From NCBI GenBank assembly GCA_963785305.1, contig CAWAUV010000002.1, positions 160,001 through 224,000 on the forward strand: a stretch of 64,000 nt of DNA. Direction: 5' to 3'. Under the pieces are notes generated by a model. That model did not search any database and was not told where the DNA came from. It worked only from the letters and a program-made list of their open reading frames with translations. Origin of the DNA: an uncultured Planctomycetaceae bacterium. Its GTDB lineage: Bacteria > Planctomycetota > Planctomycetia > Pirellulales > PALSA-1355. Position 1 is the first letter of the stretch, and each line of letters begins with the position of its first letter. Shown here in pieces: positions 3,851 through 5,702 of the stretch. The translations under genes were made by a program, and so were the position numbers.

Positions 3851-4995
3851 TTACACGCCCTTGTGACTTAAGAGCGGGCGGAGCCGCCGTAGTGATCGGG
3901 TGAGGCGCCGCTGCGCGCATCACCGCGAAGATGTCCTTGTAGGCTGACGGCGCTTCATCGCGAAGCGACCGCGCATGGCGCTGGTCGAACCAAACGCCTT
4001 GCATTTCGTCGAGCAGTTGCCGCTTTCCGATCGTTCGCGCCGCCGCCGCGCGGCTCAATGCGCGTCCGGCGCCGTGGGAGCTCGAGCACAACGATTCGGA
4101 ACATCCGCGACCCAGCGTGTGAAAACTGGCCGTGCCCATGGAACCGGGCACAATTCCGGGCTCATCGGCCCGCGCCGACTGCGCTCCTTTGCGATGCACC
4201 CAAAGTTCGACGCCCTCATGGACTTCGGCTCGCACATGGTTGTGATCGGCATGGATGATCGAGTGTTCTTCAAGTCCGATGTCAAACAGTTCGTCGAGTG
4301 TTTCGGCGACGTTCGCCAGCATCGCCAGCCGATTGGCCGAGGCATAGCGCTGGGCCCAAGCGGCGTCGGCCAGGTAATTACATCCCCCGGGGCTTTCGGC
4401 GACGAAAAACGGCAGCCACTTGGCCTCGAGATCGATCTGGGCCAGCGAGGTGATGATTCGTAATGGCCTGGCCCATGCCGCGCAAACCCGAGTGAATCAT
4501 CACCCATAGTTGGTCCTGATCGTCGCTTTGAAATTCGAGAAAATGGTTGCCGCGGCCCAGAGTGCCCAACTGCACTCGCCCCTCGCGAGATTTCAGTTTA
4601 TCGAGTCGCGGGTGGCTCAGCGGCATGTGGGCGAGCGCCTCGGGCAAGGCCTCGGGCATTGTCCCCGCGCCATGTTTGAGCGAGGGAACCCGGCGATAGA
4701 GCGCGTCGAGGAGTTTGGCGGCCAAGCGCTCATCGGCCAGGAGTTCCGCGGCGCCCGAGAATCGCGCCGTGAGAATGCCGCAACCGATATCGCCGCCAAC
4801 GGCCGCCGGAAAGATTCGCGAGCGCATGCCCACGACGAGCCCGACGCACACCTGTTTGGCTAGGTGCGCGTCGGGCATTACCGCAATTCGCTCTACATCG
4901 TCTAATCGCGCCAAGGCTTCAATGGCGGCCGCGGCCTCTGGCGGCAGAGGCTCCGCGAGCCAGCAACGCGCCTTTCGATGCGAAGCGCGATTCAT
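3851..4995 (-). CDS. rtcB: RtcB-family RNA ligase (frameshifted in this sequence)
   Basis: Motifs MPDAH, VGGDIGCG, GTLGRGNHF, IHSG, HNH, HRKGA, PGSMGT, SHGAGR, DEAPSAYKDI across several frames. Confidence 0.92.
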
Positions 4996-5428
4996 TGGCC
5001 GCCCTCGAAGGCTTTCGGAGACGCGAGAAACTCGAACAACAGCTTCGGCGCCCGCTTCCGAGTAATCGCCGCCGCCACGCCGCGCGCAGGCGTCCGGACT
5101 CCGCGGCAAGGCGCGCGAGAACTTCGAACGGATCGAATGGCGCGGCGGGCTCGACCGCTGGAACCACGACCACAAGCAATCGCGACGCGTCGGGCGCCGG
5201 TCGAACTTCGGCCACTTGCAGGAGCGAAAGCAACTCGTCGCGACTCTCGCCGCCCAGCAAATAATTCAGCGTGTCTTGAGCCTGGCTGCAAAGCTGCAAG
5301 GTTTTGCGTCCGGATTTCCACCCGGCTTTGCCTTGGCGGAAGAAGTCCCGGGGATCGACGCCATCGTCATCTCGCGATTCGGAAGATAAGGGCGGCACTC
5401 GGCGCGCGGCCCGTCGTTTGGATGTCAT
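4992..5428 (-). CDS. RbfA-like (ribosome-binding factor A family) paralog, one frameshift
   Basis: LQVAEVRPAPDASRLLV ... GRLR ... AITRKRAPKLLF KH-like pattern; stop overlaps rtcB start (ATGA). Confidence 0.7.
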
Positions 5429-5548
5429 GGGTTCTCTCACGAGGAAAAAAGTCGCGCGCGGAGCGAGCGCCGTGGTATTCGCGTCGACGCGACGCGAGCC
5501 CTGAAGCGTGAGAGCCTGCCCCGAGAACCGGAGCCAGATAATGAGCAA

Positions 5549-5605
5549 TTAGCCGCGGTCGTCGCGCAGGCTCGGCGACACAAACAAGCAAATGGCGATG
5601 TTCAT
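5549..5605 (-). CDS. Putative leader peptide MNIAICLFVSPSLRDDRG
   Basis: GGAGGT 5 nt before ATG; 18 codons; followed by alternative helices. Confidence 0.55.
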   Translation of the reverse strand: MNIAICLFVSPSLRDDRG

Positions 5606-5672
5606 GGTCGACCTCCAGATTGGGGAGTGCTTGGCCTTTGCGATAGCGGCCCCGATGCCGCGAACGAACCCA

Positions 5673-5702
5673 AGACGCGGATGGGCCCGCGAAGGTTCGC
5701 GC
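5673..5702 (-). promoter_or_regulatory. Putative ECF-sigma promoter of the rbfA-like/rtcB unit
   Basis: GCGCGAAC-N16-GCGTCT, same boxes as 3509-3537. Confidence 0.6.

Follow-up and report, generated by a model that had tools for sequence, protein, structure and literature searches.

The locus and its leader

The locus lies within a 64,000-nt stretch of planctomycete DNA, hereafter the window, whose coordinates are used throughout. The gene order is miaB, a stand-alone tRNA-Leu(GAG) (5876-5792), the leader, an RbfA-like gene (from 5428), rtcB (from 4995) and a tRNA array (from 3177). All the features of the leader are read on the minus strand, and they are listed here in the order in which they are transcribed.

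5673..5698, minus: candidate promoter motif GAACC-N17-GTCT, from a pattern count upstream of type I uORFs
5611..5616, minus: Shine-Dalgarno (SD) sequence GGAGGT of the upstream open reading frame (uORF), from sequence; purine block at -12 to -7 conserved in 41 in-register leaders
5549..5605, minus: uORF of 18 codons, MNIAICLFVSPSLRDDRG and stop, with ATG at 5605 and TAA ending at 5549, from sequence; homologs have 10-25 codons and ATG or GTG starts
5568..5614, minus: hairpin H0, SD, spacer and AUG (5614-5601) with codons 8-13 (5582-5568) and a single bulged A; the window can form 11 of 14 pairs, from covariation and nascent-prefix folding
5566..5573, minus: segment 1, GAGCCTGC, uORF codons 11-14, predicted anti-anti-RBS strand; AGCC[TC]G at a fixed uORF position, pairing with segment 2
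5518..5534, minus: hairpin A, GCTCCG/CGGGGC in the window, overlapping the 5' end of segment 2 and belonging to the predicted OFF fold; 78.4% paired, double changes in 4 of 7 pairs
5507..5519, minus: segment 2, GCAGGCTCTCACG, 5' part with segment 1 and 3' part with the RBS segment, from exact complementarity and alignment
5456..5470, minus: hairpin B (GCGC-loop-GCGC), followed by a pyrimidine tract (T6 at 5450-5445 in the window); three-pair core 90.8% paired
5434..5441, minus: segment 3, CGTGAGAG, in the ribosome-binding site (RBS) region upstream of the RbfA-like gene; its helix is 78% paired, with double changes in 4 of 8 pairs
4992..5428, minus: RbfA paralog, stop overlapping the rtcB start (ATGA); PF02033 in intact homologs, Foldseek and tblastn
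3858..4995, minus: rtcB RNA ligase; PF01139 in both pieces, and tblastn

A sequence-only reading of this DNA had described an SD sequence and 18-aa ORF, two alternative 8-nt pairings and the element CGCGAC-T6, and each of these is present on the minus strand exactly where it was placed. Perfect Watson-Crick pairing is possible between GAGCCTGC (5573-5566) and GCAGGCTC (5519-5512), and likewise between CTCTCACG (5514-5507) and CGTGAGAG (5441-5434); the last of these stops 6 nt short of the ATG of the RbfA-like gene at 5428. CGCGAC-T6 occupies 5456-5445. Two overlapping perfect 8-bp helices in such an arrangement arose in 1 of 2000 dinucleotide shuffles of the leader, and the same arrangement at 6 bp in 130 of 2000. 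The two helices overlap by just 3 nt (CTC, 5514-5512), and a fold in which the RBS helix is complete but the first helix shortened is calculated to lie just 1.4 kcal/mol above the minimum. The helices are predicted not to be strictly exclusive, and can largely coexist. The stability of the region as a whole is not unusual (z = -0.60). An nhmmer search of the same genome gave no second copy of the leader at the four places opened (best E = 0.0068), which were in or before unrelated genes.

The promoter-like motif, in the form GAAC[CT]N15-18GTC[TC], is found upstream of 23 of 50 type I uORFs, compared with 3 of 243 control windows and none of 18 type II leaders. It may be ECF-sigma-like. It was also seen, as GAACC-N16/17-GTCT, before many of the tRNA-array leaders discussed below. 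At three loci (L123, L125 and L129) it stands directly before the ATG of the paralog with no uORF between, which suggests a leaderless form of the gene.

The cassette begins directly after the tRNA-Leu(GAG) gene. It was not found in 32 genomes of the same family, and may have been inserted at the tRNA gene. At one homologous locus (L050, 1803-2158) a tmRNA lies directly upstream of the leader, and at another (L049) the gene upstream of the match presumably encodes something resembling the C-terminus of Ro60/TROVE.

Conservation of the leader in planctomycetes

Homologous loci were collected with an alignment as query; a single-sequence query of the genome contigs gave no matches. This yielded 277 loci, of which 242 non-redundant ones were retained. 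Loci with enough flanking sequence were scored by a motif-blind rule requiring an SD match of at least 5 nt and a uORF of 8-27 codons. Conservation of the leader ORF and its helices, on which the sequence-only reading had staked its proposal, is borne out. The arrangement recurs in homologs, and 100 of 208 RbfA-paralog loci have a uORF by this rule compared with 41 of 2042 control genes (long genes of the genome that the window comes from). The remaining 108 paralog loci fail the rule. The fraction is 58 of 84 for loci linked to rtcB and 42 of 124 for unlinked loci. A strict leader pattern has ten matches in 401 genomes, eight of them directly before the paralog gene, with one match in the controls.

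The type I set comprises 51 leaders, being 58 motif anchors less seven judged to be false (L077, L092, L113, L171, L176, L238 and L239), and these are spread over many branches of the protein tree. In 41 of the 51 the sequence AGCC[TC]G of segment 1 starts at nt 34 of the uORF, regardless of a uORF length that varies from 10 to 25 codons. For 49 of the 51, segment 1 lies in frame with the uORF (offset 1 mod 3), and both exceptions are 10-codon uORFs that stop at segment 1. This retention of frame supports translation of the uORF, which we regard as likely. In all, four of the 51 uORFs stop at codon 10 yet retain segment 1. Because these 10-codon uORFs end before the Ser-Leu-Arg encoded by segment 1, that tripeptide need not be translated.

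Over codons 8-13 the third positions are the most conserved (entropy 1.09/0.94/0.74 bits). Ser12 is encoded exclusively by AGC or AGT, and in the 41 in-register leaders Ser12 is found in 36, Leu13 in 35 and Arg14 in 20. Codons 2-7 are diverse among the 51 leaders, with no amino acid contributing more than 43 of 306 residues. In a comparison aimed at rare-codon sensing, codon adaptation in this stretch was just a little lower than at the starts of genes (-0.62 vs -0.51, with an own-genome baseline). Ala, Ser or Thr occurs at codons 2-5 in 45 of 51 leaders, as a raw count. In the alignments, what is conserved is the position and the RNA, with no conservation of the peptide beyond the constraints on the RNA.

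Rfam covariance models gave no match over 5429-5616 up to E = 1, and none at gathering score for nine homologous loci. A literature search that lay mostly outside subscription journals returned no report of the leader, or of an RbfA paralog paired with rtcB. We regard the leader as real, conserved and apparently unpublished, and as a probable uORF-coupled switch on the RBS.

Pairing and covariation of the helices

We counted compensatory double changes and compared them with 500 shuffles; the sequences are related, so that shuffle counts are not probabilities. The alignment downstream of the uORF contains 32 of the 41 in-register leaders. Covariation of the helices in orthologs had been put forward as a check, and its result divides between them. 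The set closing the RBS (hairpin A, the RBS helix formed by segments 2 and 3, and hairpin B) is 81.2% paired and has 27 double changes compared with 13.2 in shuffles, a number reached in none of the 500. In the RBS helix, for example, an A-U pair becomes G-C in seven sequences, and hairpin A, as GGCCC/GGGCC in most homologs, differs from its form in the window. The opening helix between segments 1 and 2 is 93.8% paired and nearly invariant, with two double changes (250 of 500 shuffles), so its covariation is not significant.

The three-segment scheme of the sequence-only reading was incomplete, in that it missed hairpin H0, which covers the SD and AUG of the uORF itself. H0 takes in the GCCU of segment 1. 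It is paired in 72.5% of cells, with 24 double changes compared with 13.9 (1 of 500 shuffles). RNAalifold did not predict H0, and in the downstream alignment it gave just four pairs.

Hairpin B has a semi-conserved loop and plays no role in the ribosome model presented below. The tract that follows it has a T6 run in four of 51 leaders, and 17 of 51 have at least six T in some 8-nt stretch near that site. A terminator scan did not include CGCGAC-T6 among its listed terminators. On the rarity of T6 and the result of the scan we rejected CGCGAC-T6 as a conserved terminator.

Folding with a ribosome on the uORF

The RNA was folded with a masked ribosome footprint of three sizes. Four near-duplicates and three leaders with long insertions were removed from the 51, leaving 44. 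For the window, the calculated probability of the RBS helix is at most 0.18 with a ribosome at early codons, reaching about 0.98-0.99 once the ribosome is at codon 9 or later, and the cost of opening the RBS rises from about 4.4-7.6 to about 8-11 kcal/mol between early and late ribosomes. The predicted threshold lies at codon 6-8, depending on the footprint assumed, and with a ribosome stalled at codons 9-18 the RBS stays closed in the fold.

Over the 44 leaders the median probability of the RBS helix is 0.12-0.30 for early and 0.87-0.96 for late ribosomes. Individually, 15 leaders go from ON early to OFF late, 16 never form the RBS helix by the measure used, ten always do so, and three behave otherwise. 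The median change in RBS opening energy is small (0.07-0.39 kcal/mol), with 18-21 leaders going up and 8-12 down. With segment 1 shuffled, the value for the RBS helix went up from 0.53 to 0.85, but it went up in a control shuffle too, to 0.71.

These calculations bear on two further proposals of the sequence-only reading. Folding with and without occlusion of the leader gives the anticipated result in the window, where the first helix prevails as long as the RNA is ribosome-free or the ribosome is at early codons, and the RBS helix prevails once segment 1 is covered, but a clean switch is seen in just 15 of the 44 leaders. It had also proposed that expression would rise when ribosomes fail to reach the end of the leader. 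Folding supports the direction, in that impaired translation would open the RBS, but places the threshold at codon 6-8 and not at the end of the leader, a stall at codons 9-18 leaving it closed.

At equilibrium the ribosome-free window RNA is predicted to adopt the ON fold, 6.8 kcal/mol below the full H0 form. Folds of nascent prefixes have segment 1 caught in H0 for 28 of 44 leaders, that of the window among them (0.74). Just before segment 2 emerges H0 still holds segment 1 in 24 of 44, the window no longer among them. The free RNA might thus be ON, as in the equilibrium fold of the window, or OFF with H0 forming first, as in several homologs. Because H0 competes for segment 1, a mutant lacking the uORF start codon could be either ON or OFF. 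And since the ribosome-free window RNA is ON at equilibrium, repression would require steady traffic of ribosomes on the uORF, kinetic trapping or decay.

A second class of leader

Type II leaders (for example L073, L086, L088, L090 and a subset of L227-L277) have a 13-codon uORF (MRLxxxxLPLxxR) whose codons 8-10 pair directly with the RBS. They are confined to one clade, with named members that include Tepidisphaerales/Phycisphaerales, and the main gene mostly starts with GTG. In 20 that were folded, the helix between uORF and RBS has a median probability of 0.99 in the ribosome-free RNA. It is lost with a ribosome from about codon 5, and the median cost of opening then falls to 8.0 kcal/mol, from 12.1. 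This is suggestive of types I and II both being ON with a ribosome near codons 3-6.

The downstream genes

Intact homologs of the RbfA-like gene match PF02033 with E values from 2e-8 to 3e-5, one of five scoring above the cut-off. In a Foldseek search with a predicted model the nine best matches are all RbfA, at E values of 0.16-0.64. A homolog is 32% identical over 77 aa to the canonical RbfA of the genome that the window comes from. As a canonical rbfA is present elsewhere in the genome (C7:1966576), the regulated gene would be a paralog, and by sequence and predicted fold the data weakly support a divergent RbfA paralog. Genomes with the paralog number 70 of 401 in the order and 128 of 401 in the class, but none of 32 in the family to which the window's genome belongs. 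One genome (G532) has three copies (L143, L158 and L159), each with a 21-codon uORF.

The stop codon of the paralog overlaps the rtcB start as ATGA or GTGA in 74 of 100 rtcB-linked loci, and as ATGA at 4995-4992 in the window. By this arrangement rtcB is likely to be joined to the control of the paralog through translational coupling. A scan of 76 of 118 candidate ORFs for a further conserved gene downstream of rtcB, or of the paralog at loci without rtcB, gave no consistent family, and most of these ORFs have no Pfam match.

By tblastn, the paralog changes frame between 5093 and 5081, and rtcB between 4468 and 4400, in this assembly. In the same assembly gyrA (G000:C9, 142114-144768) is also split, over three frames, while rpoB and rpoC are intact. 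For this reason insertions or deletions of the assembly are likelier than real pseudogenisation of both genes.

A leader before the adjacent tRNA array

The tRNA array has 31 genes in the window and 35 on the contig, including tRNA-Ile with TAT and AAT anticodons. Beyond the window start (G000:C2, 160098-157000, minus strand), ORFs in and after the array resemble what we take to be an HNH nuclease and an SPFH-domain protein. The array adjoins the pair of paralog and rtcB in three genomes, those of the window, L309 (G069:C338) and L310 (G083:C1), in three arrangements: downstream, upstream and divergent. Proximity of an array to the paralog is not a rule, being found at none of 39 other loci scanned.

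A second conserved leader lies directly before the array (3420-3200, minus strand; homologs L280-L298), and its conservation in other Pirellulales extends over the 260 nt that precede the array. At 19 other loci there is an in-frame uORF of about 31-47 codons (MxFLRP...PLRL-stop), ending in Leu-Arg-(Leu or Trp)-stop on the 5' strand of an antiterminator, and all 19 are followed by tRNA genes. The copy of this uORF in the window is out of frame. The antiterminator (3293-3281 in the window) forms in competition with a strong terminator (3259-3225). Of the two, the terminator has the firmer covariation support, with 11 double changes compared with 3.8 at 98.5% pairing; the antiterminator is 96% paired. 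On these sequence features the element resembles transcription attenuators of the whiB7 type, placed before a bacterial tRNA array. The titles and abstract openings searched, which took in few subscription journals, reported no such attenuator before a bacterial tRNA array.

Proposed mechanism and alternative explanations

On balance we think it probable that the type I leader acts as a translational attenuator, which is turned ON by a ribosome halted at the start or within the first six or so codons of the uORF. This would free the RBS of the paralog, with rtcB likely coupled. A ribosome that has passed codon 6-8 would cover segment 1, so that segment 2 could pair with the RBS, giving the OFF state. 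A ribosome parked earlier would melt H0 and leave segment 1 free to take segment 2, giving the ON state. The sensor would then read the position of the ribosome, not the peptide or a single amino acid. For that reason the likely trigger would be general damage to translation, such as antibiotics that block initiation or the peptidyl transferase center, cleaved tRNA or faulty subunits.

Hairpin B, conserved and with a semi-conserved loop, has no place in this mechanism. It would have one in an autoregulatory leader where the RbfA paralog or another factor bound the RNA, for example at that hairpin, and stabilised the fold closing the RBS, with the uORF just modulating. RbfA proteins bind RNA, and this counts in general for such a leader, as do the eight of ten strict-pattern matches at the paralog gene and the lack of a second copy in the same genome. 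Protein binding leaves unexplained the conservation of the SD and start of the uORF, the frame of segment 1 in 49 of 51 leaders and the different wiring of the type II uORFs, and we consider it unlikely. We judge it rather less probable still that translation of the uORF leads to termination of transcription at the stem that ends in CGCGAC-U6. U6 does follow a long imperfect stem in the OFF fold of the window, 17 of 51 leaders have at least six T in 8 nt, and PA5471.1/armZ is reported to act by transcription attenuation in the account we draw on (PMC12057347). Against this are the presence of T6 in just four of 51 leaders, the negative terminator scan and the location of the covarying helix, which covers the RBS downstream of the U-run. 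Rho-dependent polarity is possible as an effect secondary to translational repression.

The conservation of Ser12, Leu13 and Arg14 in the in-register leaders (36, 35 and 20 of 41) might indicate erm/cat-type arrest, in which a drug or metabolite stalls the ribosome at codons 12-14. We regard this as very unlikely, since the fixed choice of codons (AGC, CTG) points to a constraint on the RNA, four of 51 uORFs stop at codon 10 with segment 1 kept, the arrest motif +X+ occurs within the first eight codons in two of 51, and a stall at codons 12-14 is predicted to close the RBS. Finally, there might be no regulation at all, the pairing being chance complementarity in GC-rich DNA or the neutral remains of an old leader. 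The ordinary stability of the region (z = -0.60) and the 108 of 208 loci that fail the uORF rule are consistent with that, but the single occurrence in 2000 shuffles, the many branches of the tree and the covariation make it highly improbable.

Relation to known systems

Attenuation by ribosomes stalled on a uORF is already known, including before an RtcB-like gene in Pseudomonas. We compare the proposed translational attenuator with such systems as they are described in the cited articles. In E. coli the toiL uORF of topAI-yjhQP senses several ribosome-targeting drugs, including stalls at the start codon caused by tetracycline and retapamulin (PMC12121999). There, as predicted here, the uORF pairs with a downstream initiation region and control is translational (PMC12121999). 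As described there, toiL pairs directly with the SD, as type II leaders do, whereas type I is a relay with a segment fixed at nt 34, and the target of toiL is a toxin-antitoxin operon, not an RbfA paralog with RtcB. The vmlR leader of B. subtilis likewise has its uORF inside the first hairpin, where a stall at the initiation stage blocks the hairpin and relays to free a hairpin that sequesters the SD (PMC9226507). By that account the vmlR uORF is three codons long and its leader works with an intrinsic terminator and NusG pausing, in contrast to uORFs of 10-25 codons with no conserved terminator here.

In the whiB7/wblC leaders, as is predicted for ours, efficient translation of the uORF corresponds to OFF, and in both the length and sequence of the uORF vary (PMC10274678). 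Loss of the start codon raises expression there (PMC10274678). The same source describes a terminator, an antiterminator and an Ala-enriched uORF, whereas the output here is the RBS and the first six or so codons are the predicted sensor. So far as whiB7 is described there, the leader of the tRNA array (3420-3200) is a closer match to it than that of the RbfA-like gene. The leader peptide PA5471.1 of P. aeruginosa armZ (RtcB-like)-prfH resembles the system proposed here in placing an RtcB-like gene under the control of ribosome-targeting stress (PMC12057347, PMC3575510). It differs, on a comparison by description and not by leader sequence, in that transcriptional attenuation was proposed, the partner is PrfH and ArmZ is an anti-repressor.

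In Anabaena, rtcB and a long tRNA array (the trn L-array) are co-induced by translational stress through direct repeats in their promoters (PMC8421152), and in the window these two elements are neighbours. Control there is by promoter repeats, and the words 'leader', 'uORF' and 'attenuat' do not occur in that paper. The induction of rtcB by translational stress in Anabaena (PMC8421152), together with the ATGA or GTGA overlap, makes an RtcB output fit a translation-stress switch.

The translational attenuators of ermC (with four segments) and cat/cmlA (with direct anti-RBS pairing) follow a similar logic, in which a ribosome translating a leader ORF sets the RNA pairing, but they need a drug-specific nascent-peptide stall motif. 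No such motif is conserved in the 51 leaders, given the diversity of codons 2-7, the two occurrences of +X+ and the 10-codon uORFs that lack Ser-Leu-Arg. The run of control codons and the terminator of amino-acid-biosynthesis attenuators are also absent from the 51 leaders, and the 51 leaders and the terminator scan contain no conserved intrinsic terminator of the whiB7, vmlR or PA5471.1 type.

Implications

The fixed geometry at nt 34 combined with a free peptide would make a simple sensor of failure in early elongation. The leader of the array suggests how the long tRNA arrays of planctomycetes might be switched on; for Anabaena, promoter repeats were shown to do this (PMC8421152). More broadly, and as a tentative proposal that we hold to be possible but doubtful, planctomycetes may have a translation-stress response without a repressor, based on two leaders read by ribosomes. 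A switch at early codons would control the RbfA paralog and RtcB, which would jointly repair or re-license damaged small subunits or tRNAs, while a uORF-terminator switch would control a near-complete backup array of tRNAs. Types I and II, having evolved before the same gene, would be oppositely wired and converge on a ribosome near codons 3-6. If the proposed switch is right, there would be a phylum-wide family of riboregulators, and a second, uncharacterised RbfA tied to RNA repair under translation stress. The idea that rescue of damaged 30S subunits makes a second use of an assembly factor could then be tested directly.
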